A stretch of 64,000 bases of DNA from the IMG/VR virus record IMGVR_UViG_3300044627_003892; one strand, given 5' to 3'. Made by a program: the position numbers and the translations under genes. Origin of the DNA: a virus (lineage: Duplodnaviria > Caudoviricetes). A model generated the notes under the pieces. It did not search any database, had not been told where the DNA came from, and worked only from the letters and a program-made list of their open reading frames with translations. Below, piece by piece: positions 10,119 through 26,487 of this stretch (within the stretch, counting starts at the first letter, position 1; each line of letters begins with the position of its first letter).

Positions 10119-10127
10119 AAAAAAAAA

Positions 10128-10610: not shown

Positions 10611-10615
10611 AAAAA

Positions 10616-11116
10616 TTATTTTTTCCCAAAGATATTCATAAACTCTTTCTCGTAATCACGTCTCTCAACCTTAACAGTATTTACATGAAACTTAACAAAC
10701 TTAACGTCAGTATATATCATAGGAAATGACATGTTGATTTTATCACCCAACTTCTCAGGAGATAATACCTCACTTGAATCCCAATTGTATCTAACATCAA
10801 CATATACCAAATACGTTGGGGTAGATTCAAAACTATCAACAGTATATGTAAATTTAGTTTCAAACTTATTAATAACAATTGAATTAATACCAGGTAAACT
10901 CTTCTTAAGGACCTTGAATAATAATTCAGGAAAAACAAATTCACCATCCTTATTATACGTTCTGTTGTTCATTGAAGAACCACGATAATCACCATCAAGA
11001 TACGGATTAACAGTTATTCCTCCATTAGTTACACGATAATTACCATAATCCCTTGTTAACAAAACATTATCTCCTAAAATATTCATCACACTAATATTTT
11101 CTTCTTCAGGTTCCAT
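10616..11116 (-). CDS. hypothetical protein
   Basis: 166 aa ORF; TATCTTTG upstream. Confidence 0.65.
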   Translation of the reverse strand: MEPEEENISVMNILGDNVLLTRDYGNYRVTNGGITVNPYLDGDYRGSSMNNRTYNKDGEFVFPELLFKVLKKSLPGINSIVINKFETKFTYTVDSFESTPTYLVYVDVRYNWDSSEVLSPEKLGDKINMSFPMIYTDVKFVKFHVNTVKVERRDYEKEFMNIFGKK

Positions 11117-11165
11117 ATATATTTTTTTTACAAAGATAAAACAATAATACTAATTTACCAAAAGA

Positions 11166-11408
11166 TTATTTAACATCAGAAAATGAATCCGTATTAATAA
11201 ACTCAGATTCCAAATGACCAATAATATCCCTAAGAGTCTGACCCTGTAACTCAGGGGTTTCCCTACTACGAATAGATAAAGCAAGACCTCCACACAATAC
11301 AGACATAATATCATCCATATTCATACCCTTCATGGCCATTATGTTATAAAAAAACTTATTGTCCTTTAATGTTACATCCACAGTAACTGATAATCTCTCT
11401 TCTTCCAT
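11166..11408 (-). CDS. hypothetical protein
   Basis: 80 aa ORF. Confidence 0.6.
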   Translation of the reverse strand: MEEERLSVTVDVTLKDNKFFYNIMAMKGMNMDDIMSVLCGGLALSIRSRETPELQGQTLRDIIGHLESEFINTDSFSDVK

Positions 11409-11765
11409 ATATTAATAATAAAATAAAAAACCCAATTTTCCAAAAAATTTCCCAAAATTTATTTTTTATATATAGGGAACATTTTAAAACAAAGGGTCGC
11501 TTTTCTAAAAAATTTTTCCAGGATTTTTTTGAGGGGATTATCCCCCCTTCTGACCCAAAAAACCCCCTGTGAAAGGGGGGATACGGGAGGGGGTACCCCA
11601 TAGGTAGGGGTATAGGAGGGGGTAGTAGGGGGTGTTGATAACTTTTAATAAGTATCCCCTCCCCTTTACATTAGGTCACATCCTTTTACCACTGCTACTA
11701 TGGTAACCATTAGTAGACAGTATAGGATGATAGCTTGATTGGGTGTGATGGTAAATCGTTTCATA
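11409..11765. other. non-coding region with G-tract block (possible origin or packaging/terminus signal)
   Basis: No credible ORF; gggggatacgggagggggtaccccataggtaggggtataggagggggtagtagggggtg near 11576-11635 and repeated ttttc(c/t)aaaaaattt. Confidence 0.35.
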
Positions 11766-11954
11766 TTATCTTCTGTGTTTCTTAGGGGTACACTGATGTT
11801 GTAGTTGGCTCTTCCCCTTGTTCACACGTTTAGTTTGTTTATACATCTTCTGTTGTGTGTTAGAATGTTTCTTGTAGTTGTACCCACGTTGTGGGGTAGA
11901 ACAAGATGTTAGTATAACGACTAACATGATTAGGGGTAATATATATTTCTTCAT
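11766..11954 (-). CDS. small basic lipoprotein
   Basis: MKKYILPLIMLVVILTSC lipobox-like signal. Confidence 0.6.
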   Translation of the reverse strand: MKKYILPLIMLVVILTSCSTPQRGYNYKKHSNTQQKMYKQTKRVNKGKSQLQHQCTPKKHRR

Positions 11955-11999
11955 AATGTATAGACTACAAATATAGTTCAAAGGTTTCTTATATACAAA

Positions 12000-12302
12000 T
12001 TATTTCTTAGACAAATCAAGTAGTATGATTGGTAGTCTATCTTTATCTACATATGACAACACATCATCGTAGTCAGATAGTTTAATCCAATCACCTTGGT
12101 CACCCCACCATGCCGCTACCTCGAATGTATCAACTCCATCACCACGTAACATATTCATCCCACCGACAATAGATTGAAGACCACCACCTACAATAGATAC
12201 TGTGATATTGTTGGGGAGTGTAAGTAATCCTTGTACCGCACCCTTTACCACGTTGTGGGGTTTGAAGTCAAAGTCTTTAATGGTATATATCTTCTGTCTC
12301 AT
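12000..12302 (-). CDS. hypothetical protein
   Basis: 100 aa; TATATTTG upstream. Confidence 0.65.
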   Translation of the reverse strand: MRQKIYTIKDFDFKPHNVVKGAVQGLLTLPNNITVSIVGGGLQSIVGGMNMLRGDGVDTFEVAAWWGDQGDWIKLSDYDDVLSYVDKDRLPIILLDLSKK

Positions 12303-12629
12303 TACTACAAATATAAGATAATATCTTGGGGAAATATATTTGTTTATTTAAAAAATCCGCCGTAACTTAGCTTGGTGCTTTATATGTTTTTTTTTTATAA
12401 CAAGAGCGTCAACACAAAGATACGGCGAAGAAAGTTAATATCCTAATTTTTTATTAATTATTTTTGTTGTAACTTAGCCCCGTAAGTGTACCTTATAACG
12501 ATAAGGGGATAAAGGGCTGGCACGGTTAATGCTTGGAGTGTGTACTCCACCCTGCTTTTAAAAAAAAAGAAGATTTTTCTTGTGGGGGAAGAAAATTGTT
12601 GTATATTTGTAGAACAATAAACAACCACT

Positions 12630-13052
12630 ATGAAAATCACCCAAGACAAACTATCAACCAAATTGTTAATGAGATTCATCAAGAAGCAAAACCTTGTTGT
12701 TATGACTGACACATGGAACCACTTCGGTGAGGTATCGGTTCGTATTGTATCTGTGGGTGAGACAGACAAGTGGAATTGGAACACCAACTCTTATGGTCGT
12801 GTGATTAACATAGAGGTAACCCTAAAGAGAGAAGGTCACCGTTACGCTGAGTCATCAATCCCAAGTGTTAACTCTTGGCGTAGTCATCACAGAGCAAGTT
12901 ACTTCAAGAGCAGAAAGTGGTCAGCTAACAATGGGGCACAGAAACTAATCAACAACACAATCATCCCCACGTTCTTCAAAGCAGCTTGTATCTCATTACC
13001 AAGACACACTGACGAAATCATCGGAAACATCACCTACAAATTTATTGACTAA
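12630..13052 (+). CDS. hypothetical protein
   Basis: 140 aa; TATATTTG at 12602-12609. Confidence 0.7.
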   Translation: MKITQDKLSTKLLMRFIKKQNLVVMTDTWNHFGEVSVRIVSVGETDKWNWNTNSYGRVINIEVTLKREGHRYAESSIPSVNSWRSHHRASYFKSRKWSANNGAQKLINNTIIPTFFKAACISLPRHTDEIIGNITYKFID

Positions 13053-13440
13053 TATGAAACTCAAAGATAGATTAGATACATACACAACCACCGAACTTCG
13101 TAAGATGGGGTTACAACTTATAACCATAGTTAGAAAGACACTCGGTCATGGAAACAAACCATCCCCGAAACTGAAAATTAGAAATGGGTTAACAAACCTC
13201 TATGGTCAATACGATTATGAAGCATTAGTTATCAACCCATCCACATGTGAGACTGTTGATAAGTTTGTAAAAACAATCATACACGAATACACCCACCACA
13301 TACAAAAAGGTATCAAACGTAACTACGCATCATCACAATCAAAACATGGTTATTGGAACTGTCCCTTTGAAGTGGAAGCTCGGGGGAATGAAACAAAGTA
13401 CAAGAGTATTGTATGGAAACAATTTAAACAAATCCCTTAA
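13045..13440 (+). CDS. HExxH zinc-metallopeptidase-like protein
   Basis: TIIHEYTHHIQ ... PFEVEAR. Confidence 0.6.
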   Translation: MTNMKLKDRLDTYTTTELRKMGLQLITIVRKTLGHGNKPSPKLKIRNGLTNLYGQYDYEALVINPSTCETVDKFVKTIIHEYTHHIQKGIKRNYASSQSKHGYWNCPFEVEARGNETKYKSIVWKQFKQIP

Positions 13441-13720
13441 CATGGTTGTCCAAAATACGTATTGGATTTTCCTGACCCTTGAATAACTCCATGAACTCAG
13501 GGGTAAGTGAATACAATGTTAATATCTTCATGTCCCCTTGGTATGTAGATGATGCTTTCCTATACTCCATCTTACCCACCTTTTCCCCATTATAATATAG
13601 GGTCACAGCAACAACATCCCGTAAAGGGTCAGTTATAACCCTTACATTTTTCAGTATGTCAGTTATTGAAATGGGGTTAGACATATCGTCAGGGGGAATT
13701 GTTGATAAATTATTATTCAT
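13424..13720 (-). CDS. hypothetical protein
   Basis: 98 aa ORF. Confidence 0.5.
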   Translation of the reverse strand: MNNNLSTIPPDDMSNPISITDILKNVRVITDPLRDVVAVTLYYNGEKVGKMEYRKASSTYQGDMKILTLYSLTPEFMELFKGQENPIRILDNHVKGFV

Positions 13721-14476
13721 TTTTTCTTGATTTTGTCAAAATGTCAGTTGAGTGTCAGATGGGGGATAATCCCCTTGACGGGTTTTAGTCATATTAACAA
13801 CTATAAATATAGTGTATATTATGTATATTGTCCATAGGTAAATGTTCCCACTTTTTACCACTGACGTATGTGTAGTGAGGGTTTTTGGTTATATGAAAAG
13901 TGAAAAAAGTGGTCCTCCTGATAGTGTGAGAAGGGTTTTTTTAACTATATACATTTTCCAGATAAAAATAGGATGTAACAATAAAGTGGCGTGGACAGAC
14001 TTTAGTTGTTTAAATCCTTCAACGAAAAGTGTATTTCATTGTGTCTTCAAGGGGGTTTTTAAGATTTCCCCTTACCATATAGACACATGATATCGACAAT
14101 TATAGTGGTGGTAAAAAGTGGGACATATGTTTCATATCACTATAGTCAGGTTAAACCTGACATAACAGATATGTTTCGTATTGTCCCCTTCACATTCCAC
14201 CATATATTTTATACCCTAACAGGTATACTCATATCATCTTATATACCCTTTAGGGTATTTCATTATCCCGATGGGGTACAATACCATTAACAGTAATATG
14301 TTATGTCCCTTCATAGTGTGTGTCTTTCATTATGGGGAATTATTATAGATTAGTGTTGTACGTTAATTATAGATTCATACAATAGGGGAAATTAGGAAGT
14401 AAATAAAGGAATGGACCCATTAGTGTAATGACCCGAAGGGGAATGGAACGACACGATAGTGGAATGGGGGAATGAG

Positions 14477-14508
14477 TTTGTTTAATTCATAATTTCTTAT
14501 TATATTTG
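14477..14508 (+). promoter_or_regulatory. Bacteroidota sigma70-type promoter
   Basis: TTTG (14477-80), 20 nt, then TATATTTG (14501-08), 4 nt before ATG. Confidence 0.75.
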
Positions 14509-14512
14509 TACT

Positions 14513-15307
14513 ATGGTTATTACAGATAGATTAAAACAAATTATTTTTAAACACCTATATAGAGAGTTAGGTGATTGTGAGATTATTCCTTATAATGGGT
14601 CTATATGGTTCATTAATAGGGATAATAAACATTGGTACTTTGAACTTGATGAGTCAGGTACTTTATGGTGGAGATACGATTTTTTTAATTCGTTTTTTCA
14701 AATATTCTCCATGAGTTCGGATGATTTTTGTCCTGTTCTATCTTCTTGGGTGGAAGAGGTCTTAAATCATAAGGTATCCACAACCCAGGATAGCCTGTGT
14801 AACGTATGTAAACTGGTGGAAGAGGTCTTAAATCATAAGGTATCCACAACCTTCATTCCACTTCCAATTACAACGGACAAGGTGGAAGATGTATTAAATC
14901 ATAAGGTATCCACAACGTGCGATGTTAAAGTTCGTGTTCCTTGGAAGGTGGAAGATGTATTAAGTCATAATGTTAAGGTGTCTACAACTACCATTCTCAA
15001 ATACCCCGAGCATTCATTGGTGGAAAAGGTCTTAAATCATAAGGTATCCACAACCGATTCACTTGATTACGTTGGAAGAATTGAGGTAGAAGAGGTATTA
15101 AATCATAGGGTATCTAGAACCTGCCAAACAAGCGTTTATTGTGATAGGACGGTGGAAGAGGTCTTAAATCATAAGGTATCCACAACGCAGAATTTGAATT
15201 ATGTCGGCCAAGGACTGGTGGAAGATGTATTAAATCATAAGGTATCTACAACGGAATCGTATTTTGGACCCTTCACAAGAGGGGTGGAAGAGGTATTAAA
15301 TCAATAA
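14513..15307 (+). CDS. array-bearing protein 1 (conserved N-domain plus VEEVLNHKVSTT-X10 repeats)
   Basis: 264 aa; 22-aa periodic C-terminal half. Confidence 0.85.
   Translation: MVITDRLKQIIFKHLYRELGDCEIIPYNGSIWFINRDNKHWYFELDESGTLWWRYDFFNSFFQIFSMSSDDFCPVLSSWVEEVLNHKVSTTQDSLCNVCKLVEEVLNHKVSTTFIPLPITTDKVEDVLNHKVSTTCDVKVRVPWKVEDVLSHNVKVSTTTILKYPEHSLVEKVLNHKVSTTDSLDYVGRIEVEEVLNHRVSRTCQTSVYCDRTVEEVLNHKVSTTQNLNYVGQGLVEDVLNHKVSTTESYFGPFTRGVEEVLNQ
14749..15303 (+). repeat. CRISPR-like in-frame array: 8 full repeats (36 nt; one 42 nt) plus a partial repeat, 8 spacers of 30 nt
   Basis: Repeat starts counted at 14749, 14815, 14881, 14947, 15019, 15085, 15151, 15217, 15283. Confidence 0.9.
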
Positions 15308-15763
15308 TTAGTTATTCTCTAAAGTACCTGTATAGAAATCTAATACCATATCAAAAATATCATCTAATACATCTTTTGGTAGTTCTTCATAAGACATATA
15401 ACTTTCATCTAAAATTTGTGAGTATTTATATCCACCATAATGAAACACTGTAACATCTTCTTTATTTATCATTTCTATTTGTGAAAGTTCACCGTCTTCA
15501 TCCTTGAGGACTATTGGGTTTTCATTCATATCCATTAGTACAATATATTCATCATCGGTTGTTTCTACTACTTCCTTAATAATCTTAATCTTATTGTTTG
15601 TTGTAAGGAACTCATCACCTAACACATTTATAAGGTATTCTATACCACCGAACATTTCTCCTGTCTTTAGTAACCCCGCCTGACTTGCGATAGTTAATAA
15701 CTTCATCTGTTTTACGGTGTATTCTTCCCTTAATATTCTTTTTATGTTTTGTTGTAGGTTCAT
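15308..15763 (-). CDS. MNLQ leader-family protein
   Basis: MNLQQNIKRILREE. Confidence 0.75.
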   Translation of the reverse strand: MNLQQNIKRILREEYTVKQMKLLTIASQAGLLKTGEMFGGIEYLINVLGDEFLTTNNKIKIIKEVVETTDDEYIVLMDMNENPIVLKDEDGELSQIEMINKEDVTVFHYGGYKYSQILDESYMSYEELPKDVLDDIFDMVLDFYTGTLENN

Positions 15764-15795
15764 AATATTATAAATATAATTATATTTATTATCAT
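15764..15795. promoter_or_regulatory. divergent TATTTAT promoter cassette
   Basis: aatattataaatataattatatttattatcat; near-identical at 21235-21266 and similar at 18940-18972. Confidence 0.65.
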
Positions 15796-16125
15796 ATGAA
15801 ATATCTTATAACAGAATCACAATTAGATAAAGTAATCTTTAGATATTTGGATATTAAGAACTTTATTCAGATTAAAAGAGGAAACACAATATACTTTGTT
15901 AATTCGGAAGATGATAAATATGCCCAAATCAGATATGATAGAAACGATGGTTGGTGTTATATACGCCATGGATTAATTTACGAAATTTCTTCTTTCTTTT
16001 CTTTGGACATATATGATTCTAAGGAAGTTATCGGTAGATGGGTTGAAAATACTCTACAAATGAGGGTTACTTATACCCGTTTGGTCTTTCACGATGTGAA
16101 CAATTTGTTTAAAATACCTAACTAA
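15796..16125 (+). CDS. MKYLITES family protein with WVENTL domain
   Basis: Paralog of 19297, 60746, 17961, 21635. Confidence 0.8.
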   Translation: MKYLITESQLDKVIFRYLDIKNFIQIKRGNTIYFVNSEDDKYAQIRYDRNDGWCYIRHGLIYEISSFFSLDIYDSKEVIGRWVENTLQMRVTYTRLVFHDVNNLFKIPN

Positions 16126-16834
16126 TAGTAATAATCTTCCACTCCCCATTATAATCTTCCACAAGACATGTAGAGTTCTCACAGAAGTCCCCTGAGTTCA
16201 TATAGTAATTCTCTATCTTCGGATGATGAATATGTCCACATACTGCCACATCATACCCCTTCTGTTTTGTTAGACCTTTTGCGTTATCCTCAAAATCAGA
16301 TACAAAGTTAATTGCCCCTTTAACAGATTGCTTTATTGTGTTTGCTAATGAATGATATGGTAAGTTAAACCACTTTCTTATTTTGTTATATAAAGTATTA
16401 AACTTAATCACAATATCATATGACCATCCACCGATTACCGCTAACCACCTCGCTTCCATTATAACGAAATCCAATACATCCCCGTGAAAACAAAAATACT
16501 TTCTATTATCTATTCCTGTATGTATATACTTTCTTACAATCCTGATGTTGTTTAATTTAAATGGAATAAAATCTTTTAGGAAGTCATCGTGGTTTCCTCT
16601 TATATAAACCACCTTTGTATTCTTCTCTGACATCTTCATGAACCTTCTGAATATCTTGGTACAATCCTTTGTCCATTTACCATTACCTTTAAGAGCCCAA
16701 CCATCTATTATATCACCGTTCAGTATTAGTTTTTCCGTTGTGTTATTATCCAAGAAACTTATTATCTTATCTGTCTGTGATTGTCTTGCTCCTAAGTGTA
16801 AATCACTCATGATTATCGTTTTCCAATTATTCAT
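16118..16834 (-). CDS. LpxH-like UDP-2,3-diacylglucosamine hydrolase / metallophosphoesterase
   Basis: SDLHLG, GDIID, GNHD, HGD and GHIH motifs. Confidence 0.75.
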   Translation of the reverse strand: MNNWKTIIMSDLHLGARQSQTDKIISFLDNNTTEKLILNGDIIDGWALKGNGKWTKDCTKIFRRFMKMSEKNTKVVYIRGNHDDFLKDFIPFKLNNIRIVRKYIHTGIDNRKYFCFHGDVLDFVIMEARWLAVIGGWSYDIVIKFNTLYNKIRKWFNLPYHSLANTIKQSVKGAINFVSDFEDNAKGLTKQKGYDVAVCGHIHHPKIENYYMNSGDFCENSTCLVEDYNGEWKIITIS

Positions 16835-17538
16835 TCCCAGTATCCTTTATCATCCTCAAAATGATTTTTATTGTTCCTGTTGAAGAATGAACTAACCATA
16901 AGTTTTAACATATACCACACTCCTTTCTGTTTGAACCTTCTTGGACTTGTGAATACCGTTGTATTCATGATATAAAACTTGCTTGGTTTAACTTGTTTGG
17001 AGAATAGATAATCCTCGGCAACTCTTGCGTTTTCATCAAACCCACCGATTGTATCATATACTTCTTTCTTAACCATCATGAACCCACCAAGACAAAATGG
17101 TGTGATTGGTTTGAATACCTTTTGTATTGTGTCAAACAATCTGAATATACTATTATACTCACCTGTCGTTGACCTTACCTTACATGTAATCAAATCTGTA
17201 TTATGTAATAAGAACTCCCATATACAATTGTTTAATATGTTGAAATCCAATAAGAATATGTCAGCGTCCAAAAATAGAACATAAGGTGTTTCCACATTCT
17301 CTGCTCCCTTATTTCTTGCAACAGACGGAAGTCCTCCTGAAATAATCTGTAGATTAAAATAATCTGTTCTCCTATTTTCCAAAGAATAGGATGTATAATC
17401 ATCATCCGATGAATCACAAACAATAACTCTAACATCTTGTATTCCCTTTTGAAAGTTTAATAAGGACAACGTTTGTTCTATTATCTTGCCCTCGTTCTTA
17501 CAAGGGATTACTATGGTTAAAAACTTTGATAAATCCAT
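16831..17538 (-). CDS. glycosyltransferase family 2
   Basis: IVIPCKNE, VCDSSDD, ARNKG, FLDAD, ED motifs. Confidence 0.85.
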   Translation of the reverse strand: MDLSKFLTIVIPCKNEGKIIEQTLSLLNFQKGIQDVRVIVCDSSDDDYTSYSLENRRTDYFNLQIISGGLPSVARNKGAENVETPYVLFLDADIFLLDFNILNNCIWEFLLHNTDLITCKVRSTTGEYNSIFRLFDTIQKVFKPITPFCLGGFMMVKKEVYDTIGGFDENARVAEDYLFSKQVKPSKFYIMNTTVFTSPRRFKQKGVWYMLKLMVSSFFNRNNKNHFEDDKGYWE

Positions 17539-17646
17539 AATAATAACTATTAAAAACAACCTCAAACCATATTATCATATTCTTATTAAATTATTAACCC
17601 AATATGTATTGTTCAATTTTATGTGTATCTTTGTATTTATTATAAT

Positions 17647-17964
17647 ATGAAGATTGAGCATAAGGTTAAAGCAATTGTAAAACTAATTAATACATTATAC
17701 TCTCCTGACGAGATTAAAGTTAGAAAGAGTGAGTTTGATGATGAGATGTTAATTGATGTTTACGTTTCTCATATTGATGACTCATATATAACCAACCCTT
17801 ACCATTATAATCTTAATAAACTAAAGGAATTAAATTTAGAACGTGAGATTAGAAGGGCGATAAAGGATTTTTTGAGTATTAAAACAAGCGGACTTAATCC
17901 ATACACAGGTTTCGCCCCGTATGCTGTTCACGGCATAACAATAGATGTAAGATTAATATTATGA
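17647..17964 (+). CDS. hypothetical protein
   Basis: Start MKIEHK after TATCTTTG/TATTTAT. Confidence 0.65.
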   Translation: MKIEHKVKAIVKLINTLYSPDEIKVRKSEFDDEMLIDVYVSHIDDSYITNPYHYNLNKLKELNLEREIRRAIKDFLSIKTSGLNPYTGFAPYAVHGITIDVRLIL

Positions 17965-18314
17965 AATACCTTATAACAGAATCAAAATTAGAGAAAGTAA
18001 TCTTTAAGTATCTTGATATTCAGGACTTTGTGATATATGACAACAAGAAGAGATTCAGCAATTATATATATTTCTTAAACAGTGAGTCAGATAGGGAATC
18101 ACAGATTAGTGTTTATACTAACAACGCCTTTGGTGAAGTTAGGAATTGGATATTTGTAAATCGTGATTTGACTGATAAATTATCTACCTTATTCCCCATT
18201 GGTAAATCGGATTGTTTGGATATAATCAAAGAATGGGTTAATAATACTTTGGGTATTAGTGATAGTACGATTTGGGATGGTCCATATGATTACAGATTAG
18301 CGGTTACAGATTAA
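17961..18314 (+). CDS. MKYLITES family protein
   Basis: MKYLITESKLEKVIFKYLD ... EWVNNTL. Confidence 0.8.
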   Translation: MKYLITESKLEKVIFKYLDIQDFVIYDNKKRFSNYIYFLNSESDRESQISVYTNNAFGEVRNWIFVNRDLTDKLSTLFPIGKSDCLDIIKEWVNNTLGISDSTIWDGPYDYRLAVTD

Positions 18315-18327
18315 TAGTTAACGAAGA

Positions 18328-18606
18328 ATGAAATACTTAATTACAGAATCACAGTTAGAATCATTTTTACTTAGAAGGTTTACAATGGATGAATTGGAAT
18401 CACTTAGGGATGATTATAACTACATTATGGATGAAGAAGATTTTGAAGATTCCGCCGACAGAGATGATTACGCTTATGAATTAATTGAAAAGTTCATTGA
18501 TAGACATAGAGGTGAAGAGTTTTTTCAATATGATGATGATACTGAATTCTATGATAAACGTTCCAAATATATTGGAGCATTACTCAAATTCTTAAACTCT
18601 AATTAA
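18328..18606 (+). CDS. MKYLITES leader protein, acidic
   Basis: MKYLITESQL. Confidence 0.75.
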   Translation: MKYLITESQLESFLLRRFTMDELESLRDDYNYIMDEEDFEDSADRDDYAYELIEKFIDRHRGEEFFQYDDDTEFYDKRSKYIGALLKFLNSN

Positions 18607-18609
18607 TCT

Positions 18610-18939
18610 TTAGAAACCTTTTCTTTCATTATACATCCGTGTAATTCTTTTTCTATAATGATTTTCTAACCCTTGGTGTATATCATCATACCAAAATTCA
18701 TCTTCAGGTAATGTGCTAACAAATCTCCAATGTACCCCATCCATCATAAAGGTTATTGTTGTGTAGACTAACTCATCTAAAAAATGTGAACTTAAAACCT
18801 TTCTGTCTTTTGTAAGACGATAAGCACCTTCAAAAGATTCAAGAAACTCATTTTCCATTTCATCATTAGAAAGTCTTCTTTTAATTCTCGCTGATAGTTC
18901 TTCCCTCAGTATTCTTTTTATAGATTCTTTTAAGTTCAT
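18610..18939 (-). CDS. MNLxE leader-family protein
   Basis: MNLKESIKRILREE. Confidence 0.75.
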   Translation of the reverse strand: MNLKESIKRILREELSARIKRRLSNDEMENEFLESFEGAYRLTKDRKVLSSHFLDELVYTTITFMMDGVHWRFVSTLPEDEFWYDDIHQGLENHYRKRITRMYNERKGF

Positions 18940-18972
18940 ATTATTATAAATATGATTATATTTATATTCTAT

Positions 18973-19293
18973 ATGAAATATCTTATCACCGAATCACAAT
19001 TAGATAAAGCCAAATCGGTAATAAATAATTTAATGATATCTGAGTTAAATAATATATTAGATTATGATAGAACATCAGATAGTGATTTCATTAATATATA
19101 TAGCCAGGAAAGAGGCCCTGATTTTTTTATTTTAATGGAGTTTGACCATAGTGATGGTAGATTATTTATTGATGAATCTTTTTTAGATAAGTTTTCATCC
19201 ATGTATCCACTTGATAAAGAACAATCAGGTAAATTCATTTCTGATTGGTTTAGTAAAGTATTTGATGTTGATGTTATGTTTTTTGAATATTAA
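18973..19293 (+). CDS. MKYLITES family protein
   Basis: Start reassigned to MKYLITESQLDK. Confidence 0.75.
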   Translation: MKYLITESQLDKAKSVINNLMISELNNILDYDRTSDSDFINIYSQERGPDFFILMEFDHSDGRLFIDESFLDKFSSMYPLDKEQSGKFISDWFSKVFDVDVMFFEY

Positions 19294-19296
19294 TAT

Positions 19297-19626
19297 ATGA
19301 AATACCTTATCACCGAATCACAATTAGACAGAGTAATCTTTAGATATTTGGATATTAAGAACTTTATTCAGATTAAAAAGGGTGCAACTATATTTTTAGT
19401 TAATTTAGAAGATGATGAATACGCTGAGATTAGATATGATAAAATTAGTGGATGGTGTTACATTGTTAATAGTTTAATTAATGAAGTGGCCTCTTTCTTT
19501 TCTTTGGGTATCTCCGATTCCATGGAACTTATCCGTAGATGGGTTGAAAATACCCTCAAAGTAATAGTTGTACAAGTCCGTGGGGCTAAACCCGCACCGA
19601 ATGTATGGATAAGAGTAAATAACTAA
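19297..19626 (+). CDS. MKYLITES family protein with WVENTL domain
   Basis: Shares an identical ~47-nt stretch with the 15796 gene. Confidence 0.8.
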   Translation: MKYLITESQLDRVIFRYLDIKNFIQIKKGATIFLVNLEDDEYAEIRYDKISGWCYIVNSLINEVASFFSLGISDSMELIRRWVENTLKVIVVQVRGAKPAPNVWIRVNN

Positions 19627-19634
19627 TATAATAT

Positions 19635-20045
19635 ATGAAATACATAATCACTGAGAATCAATATAGCAAAACTCTTAAACCCTTATTAGAGAAATTTGGT
19701 ATGCGTACTCTGTGTAAAATGACTGATAAGGAACCTGAAGATATTATTGATGAGATTGGTCTTAAAGGAACAAGAGAAGATATTATCTTTCTAACAAAAA
19801 CTATACTTGAAAATGATATCTCAACCGTCTTGATGTATTGTAGTTATAATATCATACCCACTCGTGACTCTATGAACTTGGTCGTCTACATACCTAAGCC
19901 AGCTCCTGCAAATGTGGGAAGGTATATCTATGAGGAAGGTACAAGAAGTATGTATAGAGATGTTATTTCTAAGGCTTTATATCAATTGGGTGGTGGTCTA
20001 ATTAGAGTTCACAATATTGAGGTTTATAATACAGGAAATTGTTAA
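19635..20045 (+). CDS. MKYxITE leader protein
   Basis: MKYIITENQ. Confidence 0.75.
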   Translation: MKYIITENQYSKTLKPLLEKFGMRTLCKMTDKEPEDIIDEIGLKGTREDIIFLTKTILENDISTVLMYCSYNIIPTRDSMNLVVYIPKPAPANVGRYIYEEGTRSMYRDVISKALYQLGGGLIRVHNIEVYNTGNC

Positions 20046-20061
20046 CTTATATTTATATATA

Positions 20062-20418
20062 ATGAAATATCTTATCACCGAATCAAAATTAAAAACATTC
20101 ATTAAAAACAAGTTTAATATTGACCTGACAGGTCGTGTGGAATTTGAACCTGATTCATATGAATTATTGGTTTATTTTGATAACTATCTTACTCAAGATA
20201 GTTTAGCAAGAAGACGGAGAATGGATAACTATGGTCCGATATATTTTATAGAATTAGATAATGGAAATAAAATATTTTATCAAATGAATTATAGTTCAGA
20301 CAGTCCTTTAATTCTTAGTAACGAAGGTGCTCAATATACTGAATCACAATTTATGAATTTACTTGGTATCTCAGGTCTTGGAATATCAATTGAACAATTT
20401 CTTGATTTATACGTATAA
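20062..20418 (+). CDS. MKYLITES leader protein
   Basis: Start reassigned to MKYLITESKL. Confidence 0.75.
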   Translation: MKYLITESKLKTFIKNKFNIDLTGRVEFEPDSYELLVYFDNYLTQDSLARRRRMDNYGPIYFIELDNGNKIFYQMNYSSDSPLILSNEGAQYTESQFMNLLGISGLGISIEQFLDLYV

Positions 20419-20433
20419 GATACTTAATCACTA

Positions 20434-21234
20434 TTAGATTAACGTACCAACATATCCTAATGCATCCCAATGACTCTTTCCTTTTGGTGTCTTAGTTGCA
20501 CCCGCTACCACATCTAATCCTCTTGCTTTCGATGGACCTGTAATAACATGTGATGATGGAACTCCTTTACCTACCGCAGACTGAACTGAACTTGATGTAT
20601 TCTTAGATATAGCGTAAGGTTCTACTATGAATAACTTACTTTTGTTTTTAATAAGAGAAGCAACTTTAGATGAGTATGAACATCCTGCACTGAATAATAC
20701 AACTGTCGCGTTAGGATTTTGTATGATTGCGGTTTCAATCTTATCAAATTGATTATATCTATATCCTATAACATTTTTCTTTGAACTATTACTTTTAAGT
20801 AAGTTTATTTGTTCACCTATGTTTAAGTCTCCCTTTCTATAATCTAATCCACCCATTAATATAACATCAACAATTGGAGCTTTAGAATCTTTTTTATCAT
20901 CAGACTCCGTTGATTCGTATATGACATCAACACATTCTTTATTATAAAACCTTTCTAAGTCATCCCTCATGTAGTTTTCTACATACGTAACACCATCTTT
21001 ATATTTTAACCACTCAGACAACGGACCATCGGTATCAGAACCATCTGTAATCATGTCCATAATTTCATGTTGTATACCACGCATGAATGCTTCAAAGTTT
21101 TCAAAATCACATGGATAATTAGTTACATTGTTATCCCATACAAACGATTTAAATCTATTCAATCTTCTTTTGAACTTTGGTGAAAAATCTGTTTCTTCCC
21201 TTAATACTTTTTTTATATTCTCTTGTAGGTTCAT
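20434..21234 (-). CDS. MNLQE leader protein with possible alpha/beta-hydrolase-like C-terminal domain
   Basis: VILMGGL, VVLFSAG (elbow-like), IVEP, HW motifs. Confidence 0.4.
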   Translation of the reverse strand: MNLQENIKKVLREETDFSPKFKRRLNRFKSFVWDNNVTNYPCDFENFEAFMRGIQHEIMDMITDGSDTDGPLSEWLKYKDGVTYVENYMRDDLERFYNKECVDVIYESTESDDKKDSKAPIVDVILMGGLDYRKGDLNIGEQINLLKSNSSKKNVIGYRYNQFDKIETAIIQNPNATVVLFSAGCSYSSKVASLIKNKSKLFIVEPYAISKNTSSSVQSAVGKGVPSSHVITGPSKARGLDVVAGATKTPKGKSHWDALGYVGTLI

Positions 21235-21266
21235 AATATTATAAATATAATTATATTTATTATTAC

Positions 21267-21638
21267 ATGAAGTATATTATTACCGAGTCACAACATAAAT
21301 TAATATCCGAACTTGAAAGAACTTGGAGAGATTCTGAATATACGGAACAATACAATAGACTAAAACCTAAAATGATTCGTTATTTTGAAAATTTGGTTGA
21401 TTCACATTCTGAAAATGATGTAAGACTTAACTTATTTGATAGTGACCAAAACGCCGTAATGGTTTATAATAAACCAAGTGGTGATTTATACTATAATAGG
21501 AACTTTGACGATATATATGGTACAGCCTTTCCTCATCCCATTTGGTTAGTTCACGGCAAATTCATTATGTCAGATGTATTTAATGAGTTCTTTCCTGACT
21601 ACGAAGTTAAATCAGTTAGAAGTATAACATTATCATGA
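21267..21638 (+). CDS. MKYxITES family protein
   Basis: MKYIITESQ. Confidence 0.75.
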   Translation: MKYIITESQHKLISELERTWRDSEYTEQYNRLKPKMIRYFENLVDSHSENDVRLNLFDSDQNAVMVYNKPSGDLYYNRNFDDIYGTAFPHPIWLVHGKFIMSDVFNEFFPDYEVKSVRSITLS

Positions 21639-21973
21639 AATATTTAATCACAGAATCACAATTAGATAAAGCAATACTCAAGTTTCTTGATAGTCAGGAT
21701 TTTAATATAACTAAAATTGGTGCCAGTACATATATTTCATACCCTGAAGATGATTTTGCTCAGATTAAATATGGTGGTAATCATTCCAATAATGAATTGT
21801 GTTTTATCTATAAAGGTTTAATTGAAGCAATTTCTTCCTTCTTTTCTCTTAACAGTTATCAATCCACCAGAATTGTTGGGCAATGGGTTAAGAAAAAACT
21901 GAATTTGGAGGGTCAAATGTCCAACAAGATAATGAGCTCCCAATGGTCGTTAAAATTACCAACTGAAGATTAA
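21635..21973 (+). CDS. MKYLITES family protein
   Basis: SSFFSL...GQWVKKKL. Confidence 0.8.
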   Translation: MKYLITESQLDKAILKFLDSQDFNITKIGASTYISYPEDDFAQIKYGGNHSNNELCFIYKGLIEAISSFFSLNSYQSTRIVGQWVKKKLNLEGQMSNKIMSSQWSLKLPTED

Positions 21974-22004
21974 TTTGTATTTTCAAAGTTTTTTTGTATC
22001 TTTG
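21974..22004 (+). promoter_or_regulatory. Bacteroidota sigma70-type promoter
   Basis: TTTG (21974-77), 19 nt, then TATCTTTG (21997-22004). Confidence 0.75.
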
Positions 22005-22009
22005 TGCTT

Positions 22010-22648
22010 ATGGTTACAGATAAGCTAAAACAACTCATATTCAAACACCTATACAAAGAGTTAGGTAATGTGGAGATAATCCCGTATAAAGACTCTGTAT
22101 GGTTCATTGATAGGGAAAATTGTTATTGGTATTTTCAGTTGTCTAAAGATGGATGTTTATTTTGGAGATACTCATTCTTCCCATCGTTTTTCAGTATTTT
22201 CTCTTTGGAGCAAAGTGAGTTTGAACCAATAATATCTTCTTGGGTGGAAGAGGTATTAAATCATAAGGTATCCACGACAGGTAATAAGCTCGGTTACTTC
22301 TCGCGAAAGGTGGAAGAGGTATTAAATCATAAGGTATCCACAACAAAAATGTTTGTAATTGACGAATTTCCTCTGGTGGAAGAGGTATTAAATCATAAGG
22401 TATCCACAACTGAAGAGAAAACTACTGTAACAGCAAAGTGGGTGGAAGAGGTCTTAAATCATAAGGTATCCGAAACTTTTGAAGTAGACGCCGCCCAAAA
22501 AAGAAAGGTAAAAAAAGTATTAGATAGTAGGGTATCAACAACTAAAAATAATTCCTTATTTTCCGAAAGGTCAGTGGAAGAAGTATTAAATAGTGCTTGG
22601 GTGAAAAAGGCATTAAACAATAAAAAAGAAAATGAAAGTAACGGATAG
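22010..22648 (+). CDS. array-bearing protein 2
   Basis: ATG at 22010 (MVTDKLKQ); paralog of 14513. Confidence 0.85.
   Translation: MVTDKLKQLIFKHLYKELGNVEIIPYKDSVWFIDRENCYWYFQLSKDGCLFWRYSFFPSFFSIFSLEQSEFEPIISSWVEEVLNHKVSTTGNKLGYFSRKVEEVLNHKVSTTKMFVIDEFPLVEEVLNHKVSTTEEKTTVTAKWVEEVLNHKVSETFEVDAAQKRKVKKVLDSRVSTTKNNSLFSERSVEEVLNSAWVKKALNNKKENESNG
22243..22592 (+). repeat. CRISPR-like in-frame array: 5 repeats plus a degenerate sixth, 5 spacers of 30 nt
   Basis: Repeat starts 22243, 22309, 22375, 22441, 22507, 22573. Confidence 0.88.
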
Positions 22649-23243
22649 ATTAAGACAACTCATATTCAAACAACTATACAAAGAATTAGGTAATGTGGAA
22701 ATTATCCCTACCCAATACAGTTATTGGTTTATTAATAGAGAAGAAAAATACTGGTATTTCCAACTAACTGAAAGTGGATGTTTATATTGGAGATATGATT
22801 ATTTCAAATCTTTCTTTTCTTTTTTCTCTTTGGAGTCCAAAGATTTTGAACCAATTATTTCATCTTGGGTGGAAGAGGTATTGAATAGTAAAGTATCCAC
22901 AACAATTGTGCAGATGCATCATAAGAAGGATTCGGTGGAAGAGGTATTGAATAGTAAGGTATCCACAACTCAGCAATTCAGTTTCACTTCGAATGATATG
23001 ATGGAAGAGGTATTGAATAGTAAGGTATCCACAACTGCAGGAAAGGCAGGAACTGTAACCATTGCGGTGGAACAGGTATTGAATCGTAAGGTATCCAAAA
23101 CAGTCCGTGACGTAGGTGAAGGAAACTTTTTGGTGGAAGATATATTGAATCGTAAGGTATCCAAAACGGAAGAATTCATCTCAAGAAGAGCGGAATCGGT
23201 ATATGAGGCATTAAACAACAAAAAAGAAAATGAAAGTAACTGA
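22632..23243 (+). CDS. array-bearing protein 3 (VEEVLNSKVSTT variant)
   Basis: Overlaps the upstream gene; paralogous N-domain. Confidence 0.85.
   Translation: MKVTDRLRQLIFKQLYKELGNVEIIPTQYSYWFINREEKYWYFQLTESGCLYWRYDYFKSFFSFFSLESKDFEPIISSWVEEVLNSKVSTTIVQMHHKKDSVEEVLNSKVSTTQQFSFTSNDMMEEVLNSKVSTTAGKAGTVTIAVEQVLNRKVSKTVRDVGEGNFLVEDILNRKVSKTEEFISRRAESVYEALNNKKENESN
22868..23216 (+). repeat. CRISPR-like in-frame array: 5 repeats plus partial, 5 spacers of 30 nt
   Basis: Repeat starts 22868, 22934, 23000, 23066, 23132, 23198; repeat variant GGTGGAAGAGGTATTGAATAGTAAGGTATCCACAAC. Confidence 0.88.
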
Positions 23244-23964
23244 TAGATTAAAACAGGTTGTATTCAAACAACTATACAAAGAATTAGGTAATGTGGAGAT
23301 AATCCCATATAAAGATTCTATATGGTTAATTGACCGAGAAAAGGAGCATTGGTATTTTGAATTTGAAAAGAGTGGTCGTTTGTGGTGGAGATATTATTTC
23401 TTTAATAGTTTTTTTACTATTTTCTCATTGGAACCCAAAGATTTTGAACCAATACTCTCTTCTTGGGTGGAAGAGGTATTAAATCATAAGGTGCCCACAA
23501 CTGAATTGTGTGCGGAGAAAAAGTATGATGAGGTGGAAGAGGTATTAAATCATAAGGTATCTACAACTGTTTACATGGGCATGAAGGCAAGTGTGAAGAT
23601 GGAAGAGGTATTAAATCATAAGGTATCCACAACGCAAAACGATATCGGTAAAGAAGGTTTCTTGGTGGAAGATGTATTAAATCATAAGGTATCTACAACA
23701 CAAACGACGAATGCGGAACAAGTGGTTTTGGTGGAAAAGGCATTAAATCATAAGGTGTCTACAATATCATTCAATACACCGCCGTTTCCGAATATGGTGG
23801 AGAAGGTATTAAATCATAAGGTGTCTAAAACCTATTGTAGACCCACTATTGTTCCCAGTGAGGTGAAAGAAGTCCTAAATCATAAGGTAACTACAACACA
23901 CACATCACGTACATGTAATTCACCAGTGGTGGAAGAGGTATTAAATGAAAACCCCACTGAGTAG
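23230..23964 (+). CDS. array-bearing protein 4
   Basis: 244 aa; paralogous N-domain. Confidence 0.85.
   Translation: MKVTDRLKQVVFKQLYKELGNVEIIPYKDSIWLIDREKEHWYFEFEKSGRLWWRYYFFNSFFTIFSLEPKDFEPILSSWVEEVLNHKVPTTELCAEKKYDEVEEVLNHKVSTTVYMGMKASVKMEEVLNHKVSTTQNDIGKEGFLVEDVLNHKVSTTQTTNAEQVVLVEKALNHKVSTISFNTPPFPNMVEKVLNHKVSKTYCRPTIVPSEVKEVLNHKVTTTHTSRTCNSPVVEEVLNENPTE
23466..23946 (+). repeat. CRISPR-like in-frame array: 7 repeats plus partial, 7 spacers of 30 nt
   Basis: Repeat starts 23466, 23532, 23598, 23664, 23730, 23796, 23862, 23928. Confidence 0.9.
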
Positions 23965-24017
23965 CGAATTCAATGGGGTTAATGTAGCCTAAACTACAAC
24001 GGTCCTAAGTCCGTATC

Positions 24018-24638
24018 TTAAGTATTTTTATCTCTAAGTCTTTCATCTGTTTCTTCTTGGACTTCAGGTATGAATCTATCCAAGATTATTTCATACACTT
24101 CTGGTAAGTAAAACGTATTATACCAATCAAATAAATTATCAACACTATTAAAAAAATAATTACCATTATGTGTATTATGTGTAAGTTCCACAAAATAATC
24201 ACCATCACCACTTGTATCGTATATTCCTACATTAGGTTTCTTTGAGTCATCTTCTAATCCATACCAATCAAGTTCAACGGGTGTATAATCAGCAGTTGCA
24301 AAAAAAGGTGTTGCCATTACCCATATTTTTTCTAATACATTAGGTGGATAGTGTCCCGATTTAAACTGCCTTGTCCAATAAAACACATCATCACTACTTA
24401 TTTCAATTTCAAATCCTTTATATTTTGCAGGTAAATTACCATTTTCAATATTTTCAACCAATAGTTCTTTAGCAACAAATTCATCAATTTTTAAATCAGA
24501 CATTTTGTATAAATAGGTAAGACTCACACCCATCATTTTTGCCGTCTTATAAACACCATGTTTACCAACAGTATCCATAATGAATTTACTCTTTTTATCT
24601 TCCCTTAATACTCTTCTTATGTGTTCCTGTAGATTCAT
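24018..24638 (-). CDS. MNLQE leader-family protein
   Basis: MNLQEHIRRVLRED. Confidence 0.75.
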   Translation of the reverse strand: MNLQEHIRRVLREDKKSKFIMDTVGKHGVYKTAKMMGVSLTYLYKMSDLKIDEFVAKELLVENIENGNLPAKYKGFEIEISSDDVFYWTRQFKSGHYPPNVLEKIWVMATPFFATADYTPVELDWYGLEDDSKKPNVGIYDTSGDGDYFVELTHNTHNGNYFFNSVDNLFDWYNTFYLPEVYEIILDRFIPEVQEETDERLRDKNT

Positions 24639-24639
24639 A

Positions 24640-25068
24640 TTAATTACTTTTACCTGTTCCTTTATTGATTAATTTTATACAGTTAGATGATATATTCTCA
24701 AATGTCACAATATGATGTTCATAATCTCCACCTTCGAAATGTGCATCTCTATACCAAGTAACCCCAGCACATTCTGTATCTATTAACCATGTGTCATCAT
24801 CATAACCATCACTAAACATATCTTCTTTATCCAATGAATCTGTGGCAAAAATTGCTGGTTGACATTCCGTATACCATTCACCATATAAATCCATTGCGTG
24901 ATTCTCATAACATTCCCCTACCGATGTCAACAACCCATTAAGTCGTATATTCTTTCTCCATACCGAATTTGATTTATGGACCACAAACTTATTAGGTGTA
25001 TATTCATCTCCTGATGGAGAATATAGTTCTTCCCTTAATATTCGTCTTATTGTTTCTTGTAGGTTCAT
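24640..25068 (-). CDS. MNLQE leader protein, possible ADP-ribosyltransferase-fold domain
   Basis: VVHKS...IRLNGL...AIFAT...DTWLID resembles the ART H-x-S/T, I..GL, aromatic pattern. Confidence 0.4.
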   Translation of the reverse strand: MNLQETIRRILREELYSPSGDEYTPNKFVVHKSNSVWRKNIRLNGLLTSVGECYENHAMDLYGEWYTECQPAIFATDSLDKEDMFSDGYDDDTWLIDTECAGVTWYRDAHFEGGDYEHHIVTFENISSNCIKLINKGTGKSN

Positions 25069-25532
25069 TTCTTTGTATTTTTAACACAGTTAGGGTATCT
25101 CTTACCAAACATAGTTTTCATTCCTTTTTGAGTATATCCTTTCCAACATCTTTCAGTTAATTCACCTTCTTTCATCTCCTGAGTTTTCTTTTTAGATTGT
25201 TCTTTTTTGGATTCAATATATTCAAAGGCAGTTCTTAATCTTTTCTTAACCTCAGGGTCTTTCGCTCTTTCCAAAGCCACTCGTAATCTTTGATGAATTA
25301 GATTTATAATCTGAGACTGACGAGCGTGTGATTTAGATTTGAAACTTTCTTTGTTTAAAGTATCTACAATATCTTGTTTTGTTCTGAACTTAACCGATAC
25401 AGTATCCTTTGGGTTTTCATCAGTATATAATCTTCTGTCGGAATCTTTTGGTTTCTTACCTGTTCCAACTTTGGGGTCTGACTCAACCAAGTATTTCCTC
25501 AATAATCTTCTTATTTGTTCTTGTAGGTTCAT
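25065..25532 (-). CDS. MNLQE leader protein, basic, with C-terminal CWKGY...PNCVK motif
   Basis: CWKGY-type motif recalled from T4-like phage proteins. Confidence 0.65.
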   Translation of the reverse strand: MNLQEQIRRLLRKYLVESDPKVGTGKKPKDSDRRLYTDENPKDTVSVKFRTKQDIVDTLNKESFKSKSHARQSQIINLIHQRLRVALERAKDPEVKKRLRTAFEYIESKKEQSKKKTQEMKEGELTERCWKGYTQKGMKTMFGKRYPNCVKNTKK

Positions 25533-25533
25533 A

Positions 25534-26169
25534 TTATCTATTATCTAATCTATTAACCTCATTATTACGAAGTTTATTCAAATACATCCATTCTAAAGAC
25601 CCAGGCTCTCTTTCTTCTAACGCCAATAAATCTTTTTTACGCCATAGTGTATTGTTCATAATAACCTTAATCATCTCGTCTTGAGTAACTCCTTCAGGTA
25701 CTTCTTTAATTGGTGGAACACACGTATATGACCTATCATTAAATGATAATTCTTCAACAGATATATCATTTCTACCCATCATATTTGAGATTTTACTTAA
25801 AAAAGTATCTTCAAACCATTCTTCAATTATATAATAAAGATAATTTCTTCTAACAGGAAAAGCCCCTAATAGTCCACCAACAAAATCTTCTTGTACTGAT
25901 AATGTTGAAGATTCAAATTGTCTTTTAGACGTTGGGGTTTTATCGTTAGTTTCTTCAAAGAACAATGCAAGATTCATTATTTGTTTTCCATTCTTACAAA
26001 ACTCAAAATCGTGTCTTGTTTTATAACTTTCAACGTGGTATATTTCAGCACCTGAAGCCATACTATTCAATCTATCCAAAATAAATTTCTCGGATTTTTC
26101 ACTCGGTTTCAAATACTTCTTGTTAACCTCTTCTCTTAATACTCTTTTTATGTGTTCCTGTAAGTTCAT
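25534..26169 (-). CDS. MNLQE leader-family protein
   Basis: MNLQEHIKRVLREE. Confidence 0.75.
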   Translation of the reverse strand: MNLQEHIKRVLREEVNKKYLKPSEKSEKFILDRLNSMASGAEIYHVESYKTRHDFEFCKNGKQIMNLALFFEETNDKTPTSKRQFESSTLSVQEDFVGGLLGAFPVRRNYLYYIIEEWFEDTFLSKISNMMGRNDISVEELSFNDRSYTCVPPIKEVPEGVTQDEMIKVIMNNTLWRKKDLLALEEREPGSLEWMYLNKLRNNEVNRLDNR

Positions 26170-26178
26170 AATATATAA

Positions 26179-26487
26179 TTAGTCGTAATGTAAATAAATA
26201 TAAAATTTGAATGGGAAAAACCTTGTAATGATTGAACCAATTTCTTTAATTGTTTCTTGTTTTACTTTATTAAAACCTTTGGGATTATCTATCGCATATT
26301 GTCTATCATAAAATATATTAACTTGAAATCCATTCATCATTTCGTCATAATCAAACTCAACACGTTTAACTGCCTTAAATTTTAGTTTGCTGAATAATGT
26401 ATTAGCAGTTTTTACAAAATGCTCCACCTTATCAAACTTTTCAGTCTCCTCTTTTAATACTTTTTTTATGTGTTCTTGTAGGTTCAT
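26179..26487 (-). CDS. MNLQE leader-family protein
   Basis: MNLQEHIKKVLKEE. Confidence 0.75.
   Translation of the reverse strand: MNLQEHIKKVLKEETEKFDKVEHFVKTANTLFSKLKFKAVKRVEFDYDEMMNGFQVNIFYDRQYAIDNPKGFNKVKQETIKEIGSIITRFFPFKFYIYLHYD

Follow-up and report, generated by a model that had tools for sequence, protein, structure and literature searches.

Arrays of clustered regularly interspaced short palindromic repeats (CRISPR) that are carried by viruses are non-coding, use the repeat of the host, and often contain spacers matching competing viruses. Such virus-borne arrays, together with mini-arrays, solitary repeat units without cas genes, and RNA anti-CRISPRs (Racrs), have reportedly been described by Al-Shayeb 2020, Medvedeva 2019, Faure 2019, and Camara-Wilpert 2023, and Nivala 2018 is said to have described off-target "neo-CRISPR" integration by Cas1-Cas2. 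To our knowledge, spacer integration by Cas1-Cas2 is the only known reaction that inserts a fragment of fixed length while duplicating a repeat of fixed length at one end of an array. In Streptococcus thermophilus, the type II-A integrase works on a 36-base-pair (bp) repeat with 30-bp spacers and prefers guanine at both borders; it places its second cut by a ruler, and its off-target integration occurs at sites resembling the leader-repeat junction (PMC6895254). In Flavobacterium columnare, the type II-C and type VI-B arrays have 36-bp repeats with a common GTTGT at the leader-distal end, and the II-C Cas1 serves the VI-B array in trans (PMC8092290). The repeats of VI-B (Cas13b) systems have complementary GUUG and CAAC ends, an internal stem, and a U-rich loop (10.1101/2024.03.12.584598). 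Here, we analyzed a 64,000-nucleotide (nt) stretch of DNA from a virus of the Caudoviricetes (IMG/VR record IMGVR_UViG_3300044627_003892), hereafter called "the window", in which four paralogous genes end in arrays of this 36/30 geometry that are read in frame as part of the protein. In the reading that we favor, to which we give a probability of about 45%, the four genes are real and translated and belong to a jumbo phage; their arrays are built at the DNA level by insertion of the CRISPR-integrase type, probably by a type II Cas1-Cas2 of the host, and the product is used as a protein.

The four open reading frames (ORFs) lie on the plus strand and share one build. An N-terminal domain of about 78-80 amino acids (aa), hereafter called the "N-domain", is followed by in-frame 22-aa units, each composed of VEEVLNHKVSTT and 10 variable residues, which correspond to a 36-nt repeat and a 30-nt spacer in the DNA. 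In array gene 1 (14513..15307, 264 aa), the N-domain spans 14513-14748 and the array 14749-15307, with eight spacers; one of the repeats has a 6-nt insertion, and a terminal half-repeat precedes the stop. Array gene 2 (22004..22648), with a likely start at the ATG at 22010, has its array from 22243 with five spacers; its distal repeats are degenerate, and its tail overlaps the start of array gene 3 (22632..23243). The latter has five spacers in an array from 22868, with a repeat variant of its own (VEEVLNSKVSTT). The array of gene 4 (23230..23964) starts at 23466 and has seven spacers, and its repeats decay toward the 3′ end. Every array in the four genes closes with the first half of the repeat, followed by a stop. 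The 25 spacers (8 + 5 + 5 + 7), which an earlier note on this DNA had reported as stop-free and which we found at the same places, are each 30 nt long, provided that the excess of the 72-nt unit at 14947-15018 in array 1 is assigned to its repeat as an in-frame insertion of 6 nt, which gives VEDVLSHNVKVSTT.

The unit of these arrays is defined in the DNA, not in the protein. Fifteen repeat copies lie within three mismatches of the consensus, as compared with none in 100 shuffles, and a 66-nt period is kept by 30 of 30 arrays, with one 72-nt unit type as the sole exception. The borders of the repeat are out of codon register. Among 123 distinct units, collected from the window and 12 related loci, the first base of the repeat is G in 98%, although it occupies the third position in codons of 12 amino acids (W, K, L, E, G, M, Q, S, V, R, T, and A). 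Base 37, the wobble base of the second and last Thr codon, is free in the same units (A.27, C.21, G.20, T.32), while C36 is kept in 94% within the window's lineage and the synonymous sites inside the repeat are nearly all fixed. Since G1 is fixed across variable codons and base 37 is not, the unit must be defined at the DNA level. The fixed wobble G, which the earlier note had seen in the window alone, thus extends to 123 units and nine lineages.

Eight further lineages were compared, comprising seven distant ones whose DNA was fetched and an eighth from contig L046. In these, the conserved block is again exactly 36 nt, with the out-of-register G first and C last, and the spacers are 30 nt; the repeat copies nearest to the N-domain are identical or nearly so, with 36/36 matching bases in several lineages. 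Over all nine lineages, G1, A34, and C36 are invariant, while the CAAC end occurs in eight of nine and the GTTG start in one of nine. Guanine is accordingly found at both borders of the repeat in the nine lineages (as G1, and opposite C36 on the other strand), as in the products of type II integration. Moreover, in the 30 arrays and the eight further lineages, repeats of constant length alternate with mutually unrelated spacers of near-constant length, which is the architecture of a CRISPR array.

The repeat has no conserved RNA structure in these comparisons. The inverted element GTGGA/TCCAC, to which the earlier note had drawn attention, is present in the window's lineage and confined to it, and it folds weakly (z = -1.3). 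No consensus pair of a repeat hairpin was found across the nine lineages (0 pairs), an Rfam scan of 14400-24100 gave no match, and a search for sigma-70-type promoters inside the repeats found none. Two loci deviate from the regular layout. In L046, whose contig is shared with L049, three tandem array genes at 1098-2365 include two with 67- or 68-nt periods, where the downstream repeats are in another frame (WKRFSNAGCPQ) and the ORF continues into the gene that follows; the frameshifts may be genuine or may stem from errors of assembly. In L043 (1295-2515), about 35 additional residues lie between the N-domain helix and an array of VDEVLNCEVETT units, and the best-conserved repeats are in the middle of the array rather than proximal.

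The inserts look like captured DNA that is compositionally foreign to the phage. The pairwise distances among 81 distinct spacers are bimodal, with either 1-6 mismatches (orthologous copies) or at least 12, the level of shuffled sequences. A coding variable-number tandem repeat with homology over the whole length of the unit does not fit, as 30 of each 66 nt are unrelated between units, with no intermediates. A diversity-generating retroelement does not fit either, as the window and loci contain no second copy of a spacer and the spacers are mutually unrelated; no model search for a reverse transcriptase was made. The guanine-cytosine (GC) content of the spacers is 42.2%, as compared with 33.3% for stop-free 30-mers of the phage (z = 8.2), and the excess recurs in the other lineages. 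Both GC and GC at third codon positions (GC3) in the spacers are unlike those of the rest of the gene, and in a small sample the first spacers carry the highest GC3. No spacer position has a strong base bias. Consistently, the amino-acid make-up of 275 families of spacer cassettes correlates with random translation at r = 0.87, versus r = 0.48 with the N-domain. This foreign composition points to an outside source, and the searches for protospacers, which are low in power, found no match.

The inserts are certainly selected for an open frame. None of the 68 independent spacer families has an in-frame stop, while 19-41 families have stops in each of the other five frames. About 52% of random 30-mers are stop-free, which gives the window a chance of about 0.52^25, or about 1e-7, of being open by accident; the earlier note had reached the same conclusion from an estimate of about 1e-5. 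In addition, cassettes shared between strains differ by 10 synonymous and 10 non-synonymous changes, where 22% synonymous changes were expected (ratio of non-synonymous to synonymous rates, dN/dS, about 0.28; p = 0.005). The cassette DSTQYVMDGG, for example, exists in three DNA versions that differ at three internal synonymous sites and at the free wobble base before the cassette. The synonymous excess indicates that the peptides matter, and it disfavors a role as guide RNA, in which all positions would count alike.

The arrays change mainly at the end near the N-domain. Singletons account for 0.53 of the cassettes at position 1 and for 0.16 of those at position 5, and the mismatches to the first repeat climb along the array (0, 1.4, 1.8, 3.1, 3.9). 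Among pairs of arrays that share cassettes, 255 differ on the 5′ side only and 25 on the 3′ side only, and the shared cassettes are in the same order in 167 pairs and reversed in five. Strains with identical N-domain DNA (234/234 nt) nevertheless have different proximal cassettes. In the metagenome contig L051, the array has one more proximal unit than otherwise matching arrays, and its repeats 1 and 2 are both the variant that elsewhere is restricted to the first repeat. This is the expected trace of a duplication of the first repeat upon insertion. The polar gain of units that the earlier note had proposed to look for is thus supported indirectly, through strain comparison: the arrays appear to grow from one end and to copy the end repeat there, and their distal repeats are degenerate. 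Internal deletions and exchange of cassettes also occur among the arrays, and 21 cassette families sit behind more than one type of N-domain. In run X15, the N-domain of array 1 is followed by KMFVIDEFNM, which in the window is a cassette of array 2. A 151-nt contig from the RNA-library run X20 joins window position 14946 to 15217, so that CDVKVRVPWK is directly followed by ESYFGPFTRG in this strain variant.

The first repeat is a native part of the protein. In the window, paralogues without an array align with the array genes through WVENTLQMRVTYT, the counterpart of WVEEVLNHKVSTT, and hence through the first repeat; the repeat is therefore coding sequence of the domain family and not a captured CRISPR repeat. 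An AlphaFold2 (AF2) model of an orthologue of array gene 1 predicts the N-domain with confidence (predicted local distance difference test, pLDDT, about 80) as a helix, four strands, and two helices. The last of these helices extends through the first repeat, while the middle units are predicted to be disordered (pLDDT <35). The final part of the last N-domain helix is encoded by the first repeat, and the downstream repeats are copies of the latter.

The family to which these proteins belong is large. A word-indexed search recovered at least 1005 metagenomic homologues, whose lengths differ in steps of 22 aa, and an exhaustive search with the N-domain alone gave 365 clusters at 50% identity. 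Distant members retain the 22-aa period with repeat peptides of their own (VEDVLNRKVVST, VEGVLKGGVTTT, LESVLNCGVTTT, VEEVLNCKVVTP, VDEVLNCEVETT, VEDTLNCKVLST, and VEEVLKRGVSST), and the peptide motif [VL]-E-x-V-L-N-x-x-V-x-[ST]-T is conserved over distant lineages. Pfam and PHROGs scans of the array proteins named no family, and the ESM Atlas contained nothing usable for them. A fold search with the AF2 model found no known fold (best PDB match, Z = 4.8), and in the AlphaFold DB the N-domain matched only two uncharacterized entries. A read-length contig of a strain variant of an array is present among the assembled contigs of RNA libraries from a metatranscriptome, which is weak evidence of array transcription.

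How could such an array grow? In the mechanism that we propose, a DNA fragment of about 30 bp would be inserted where the N-domain meets the first repeat, and that repeat would be duplicated to form a new unit. Insertion coupled to repeat duplication is the reaction of the CRISPR Cas1-Cas2 integrases. The 36/30 geometry, the border guanines, and the leader-distal ...CAAC end match type II (II-A/II-C) arrays, and also VI-B arrays that borrow the type II Cas1-Cas2; we infer from this match that the most likely supplier of the integrase is the host. Its type II integrase would then act on the end of a gene that by chance looks like its target. As a unit of 66 nt makes up 22 codons, in-frame insertions without stops would survive as modules of a 12-aa helix and a 10-aa new peptide, while the remaining insertions would truncate the protein and be lost. 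The product would act at the protein level, through short peptides whose set is specific to the strain, and not as CRISPR RNA (crRNA).

The surroundings of the array genes bear on their host and on the use of their products. The window is phage DNA with a GC content of 32%, and its genes include those for DnaK, ThyA, an Rnl1-type RNA ligase, a GlnA-like protein, and two histidine-kinase-like proteins. The closest IMG/VR records are 133-241 kb long and estimated as 45-82% complete, which implies a genome of about 290 kb, that of a jumbo phage. The motif TAnnTTTG, a Bacteroidota-type -7 promoter box, stands 3-5 nt ahead of the ATG in 11 ORFs of at least 60 aa on both strands of the window, an arrangement (TAnnTTTG-N4-ATG) that presumably fits Bacteroidota-type promoters with leaderless mRNAs. 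On the plus strand, it occurs at 14501..14508, 4 nt ahead of the ATG of array gene 1, where it is a putative promoter, and at 21997..22004, 5 nt ahead of the ATG of array gene 2 (22010), where it probably drives an operon of array genes 2-4. The DnaK is nearest to those of huge uncultured phages and Prevotella phages, and a related contig encodes a TonB-receptor-like protein with a CarbopepD_reg_2 domain. On the basis of the promoter motif, the affinity of DnaK, and the TonB-receptor-like gene, the host is taken to be a member of the Bacteroidota, and probably a freshwater one. The L046 contig also carries a TonB-receptor-like gene, as well as ClpB-like genes. The DnaK itself (626 aa; within window 50904-56070) is 69% identical to the copies in huge uncultured phages, and its gene is adjoined by those for two HATPase_c proteins, one of which has a PAS domain. 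The RNA ligase (43014-44075; Pfam RNA_lig_T4_1) lies inside an RNA ligase and repair cluster (41061-47016), which could serve as a counter to RNase-type defenses.

Four short paralogues of the N-domain without an array are encoded on the plus strand between array genes 1 and 2. The one at 15796..16125 ends in WVENTLQMRVTYT plus a short tail and aligns with the first repeat of the array genes (E = 4e-7). The others are at 17961..18314 (MKYLITESKL...EWVNNTLGI...), at 19297..19626 (containing RWVENTLKVIVVQV), and at 21635..21973 (containing QWVKKKLNLEG), the last being immediately 5′ of the array-gene trio. A search for a second, frameshifted repeat copy with a 65-nt period in these short paralogues gave only a weak AT-rich similarity, and a repeat search found nothing. 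Neither they nor nine neighboring ORFs were assigned to a family by PHROGs. Minus-strand ORFs of 72 and 83 aa lie antisense to the arrays (22191-22409 and 22970-23221); they are owed solely to the repeat being stop-free in that frame and show no sign of being genes.

Around the array genes is a block of small genes, at least 21 in number, that are otherwise diverse and share common N-terminal tags (MKYLITES... and MNLQE.I.R.LRE...); the array proteins align at their N-terminus with the first of these, the MKY...ITE type. Among the small ORFs at 6904-26487 and 60746-61075, at least 12 begin with MKY(L/I)ITE(S/N) and nine with MNL(Q/K)E.I(K/R).(I/V/L)L(R/K)E. The (L/I)-x-E in the shared tags recalls the capsid-targeting and prohead-protease signal of T4. 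By analogy with the hyperplastic internal-protein loci of T4, the array products may be packaged, injected, and engaged in an arms race, and the array product is possibly an injected or anti-defense protein.

Several results weigh against an origin by the host's integrase. Neither Cas1 (PF01867) nor Cas4 (PF01930) is present in five related phage records of up to 82% completeness, and neither is in the window, as the earlier note had said of cas genes there; the window ORFs also include no large cas9-like ORF near the arrays. The comparison with host repeats that the earlier note had called for produced no counterpart: a scan of 185,579 species representatives, among which the true host of the phage may not be included, for the two repeat ends at CRISPR spacing turned up no bacterial array and gave 12 single matches, no more than a rough chance estimate. 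The search for the source of the spacers, also suggested there, likewise came up empty. No source was found in the window and loci, in the related phage genomes and records, or in the INPHARED cultured phages at E values of up to 10. Three spacers compared with IMG/VR gave no source, as two scans matched only the arrays themselves, and two spacers compared with the JGI metagenomes gave none; the second of these scans recovered five arrays, which indicates that the scan works, and no other context. In 61 Bacteroidota genomes, there were only low-complexity chance matches. For the extra unit in L051, an ancestral origin with later loss from the other arrays is just as possible, and recombination between arrays, which moves cassettes, could mimic part of the polarity. 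The turnover is slow, with the exact array 1 occurring in 14 lake-metagenome runs from 2020-2024. The dN/dS estimate stands on only 20 substitutions. Two of the outcomes that the earlier note had named as speaking against spacer integration have therefore come about, namely the lack of a foreign match to the spacers and a dN/dS below 1 in orthologous spacer copies. Others went the opposite way: the spacers are not diverged duplicates of each other, their length and the wobble G hold in the homologous arrays, and units change mostly near the proximal end. From the proposal that spacer integration adds 10-aa modules to a protein, then, the DNA-defined unit, the foreign and unrelated inserts, the polarity, and the selection on the peptides have stood, while an integrase, a cas gene, and a protospacer were not found.

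The main rival, which is possible but doubtful in our judgment, keeps the same DNA-level insertion of cassettes and assigns it to an enzyme encoded by the phage, so that the 36/30 geometry and the border bases would be convergent or coincidental. It would account for the lack of cas genes in the related phages and of a bacterial array with the phage repeat. The repeat that each lineage has for itself within a constant architecture fits a mechanism that travels with the phage, and the jumbo-phage genome is mostly unannotated. However, no enzyme other than Cas1-Cas2 is known to couple fixed-length repeat duplication with fragment insertion, no candidate gene is conserved beside the arrays across the lineages, and G1, C36, and the CAAC end match the type II borders (PMC6895254). 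The arrays could instead have grown without any new DNA, as those of an ordinary tandem-repeat protein with 22-aa units multiplied by slippage and gene conversion and 10-aa parts altered by diversifying point mutation. The conservation of the [VL]-E-x-V-L-N-x-x-V-x-[ST]-T motif across distant lineages, the concerted evolution of the repeats in each lineage, and the internal deletions and cassette exchange would be natural for such a protein. This explanation is nonetheless very improbable, as the spacers show no intermediate similarity and differ in composition from the remainder of the gene, unrelated proximal cassettes occur in strains whose N-domain DNA is identical, and the variable block is bounded at nucleotide resolution, with G1 fixed even in four-fold degenerate codons and base 37 free.

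Two further alternatives concern what the arrays do. The earlier note had considered that crRNA or decoy arrays might be hidden in an ORF. The mRNA would then be a source of crRNA-like or decoy (Racr-like) RNA for Cas13b or Cas9 of the host, and its translation would serve just to shield the transcript, for instance against Rho-dependent termination. The 36/30 geometry, the CAAC end in eight of nine lineages with a GTTG start in one, and the near fixation of synonymous sites in the repeats of an array agree with this idea; an array piece is present in an RNA library, where DNA carry-over is possible, and the RNA ligase and repair cluster could answer RNase-type defenses. We regard it as unlikely. 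The spacer substitutions favor synonymous sites, which is not expected of a guide RNA; the repeat differs between phage lineages, with neither a protospacer nor a host array containing it found; and the repeat lacks a consensus hairpin, a strong fold, and an Rfam match. A pattern search for VI-B arrays in 401 Bacteroidota genomes found none, and the phage repeat was therefore compared with published VI-B repeats. It is identical to the PspCas13b repeat at 16/36 positions (hand count), and with its single GTTG-starting lineage, it does not have the paired GUUG/CAAC ends and U-rich loop that VI-B repeats need (10.1101/2024.03.12.584598). The other alternative leaves the origin of the arrays aside and makes the proteins multi-core precursors, like polyproteins or the precursors of ribosomally synthesized and post-translationally modified peptides (RiPPs), which would be cut at the constant segments to release 10-aa peptides. 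Constant flanks around hypervariable cores do resemble the cyanobactin and prochlorosin precursors, the middle units are predicted to be disordered, and the peptides are under purifying selection. However, the cores have no conserved residue and no bias in composition or position, unlike RiPP cores; no maturation enzyme was recognized by Pfam or PHROGs among the array proteins or by PHROGs among the nine neighboring ORFs, and no protease motif is evident in the repeat. We consider this use of the proteins quite unlikely, and retain a product that is used as a protein, with peptide modules inserted by a CRISPR-type integrase, as the reading that we favor.

What would this reading mean? A tentative generalization is that Bacteroidota phages may have co-opted the host Cas1-Cas2 as a writer of protein sequence, turning random 30-bp inserts at the 3′ end of a gene into selected 10-aa modules and thereby maintaining a heritable, strain-specific repertoire of peptides. 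We found no description of translated CRISPR arrays or of the repeat peptide in the searchable literature. If true, array growth by insertion at one end would be an undescribed route for adding peptide modules to a protein, and a natural mechanism by which arbitrary DNA becomes new coding sequence, one discrete module at a time. It would also link CRISPR adaptation, so far known only for the storage of guides, to the diversification of viral proteins. The open question of whether Cas1-Cas2 naturally acts on non-CRISPR targets could be tested on this abundant family of lake phages. The approximately 25 strain-specific peptides per genome, conserved as peptides, suggest specific targets, perhaps host defense proteins. 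In practical terms, array finders applied to viral metagenomes will score these protein genes as "phage CRISPR arrays".

Among the known systems, the arrays are closest to those of II-C and VI-B in the Bacteroidota and II-A in S. thermophilus. They share the 36-bp repeat, the unique 30-bp spacers, the G at both borders, the ...CAAC at the repeat's leader-distal end, and the novelty at one end with decaying distal repeats, and, as in VI-B, transcription runs from the leader side into the array. In contrast to all of these, the "leader" and first repeat of the phage encode a folded domain, and the whole array is an ORF under selection at the peptide level. Moreover, no cas genes, protospacers, or repeat hairpin were found here, and the repeat is specific to the phage lineage. 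The virus-borne CRISPR arrays are similar in having repeat-spacer units in a virus without adaptation genes, presumably dependent on host proteins, while none of their other properties (non-coding sequence, the host's repeat, and spacers matching competitors) held in the tests here.

Outside CRISPR, the cyanobactin patE and prochlorosin genes likewise combine flanks that are constant at the nucleotide level with unrelated cores and many variants per population. They differ in having one to few cores, dedicated maturation enzymes, and constraints on core residues, and in lacking a polar, decaying array. The hyperplastic ip loci of T4 encode internal proteins with a common N-terminal capsid-targeting tag. 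The array genes resemble them in lying in a block of small genes with common N-terminal tags; they differ in that the ITE of the tag is replaced by ITD in the array proteins. Finally, neo-CRISPR integration would account for the start of an array on a segment of an existing gene, that segment then serving as the repeat. While neo-CRISPR integration is known only from experiments and rare genomic events, the arrays described here constitute a conserved and expanded gene family with more than 1000 members.

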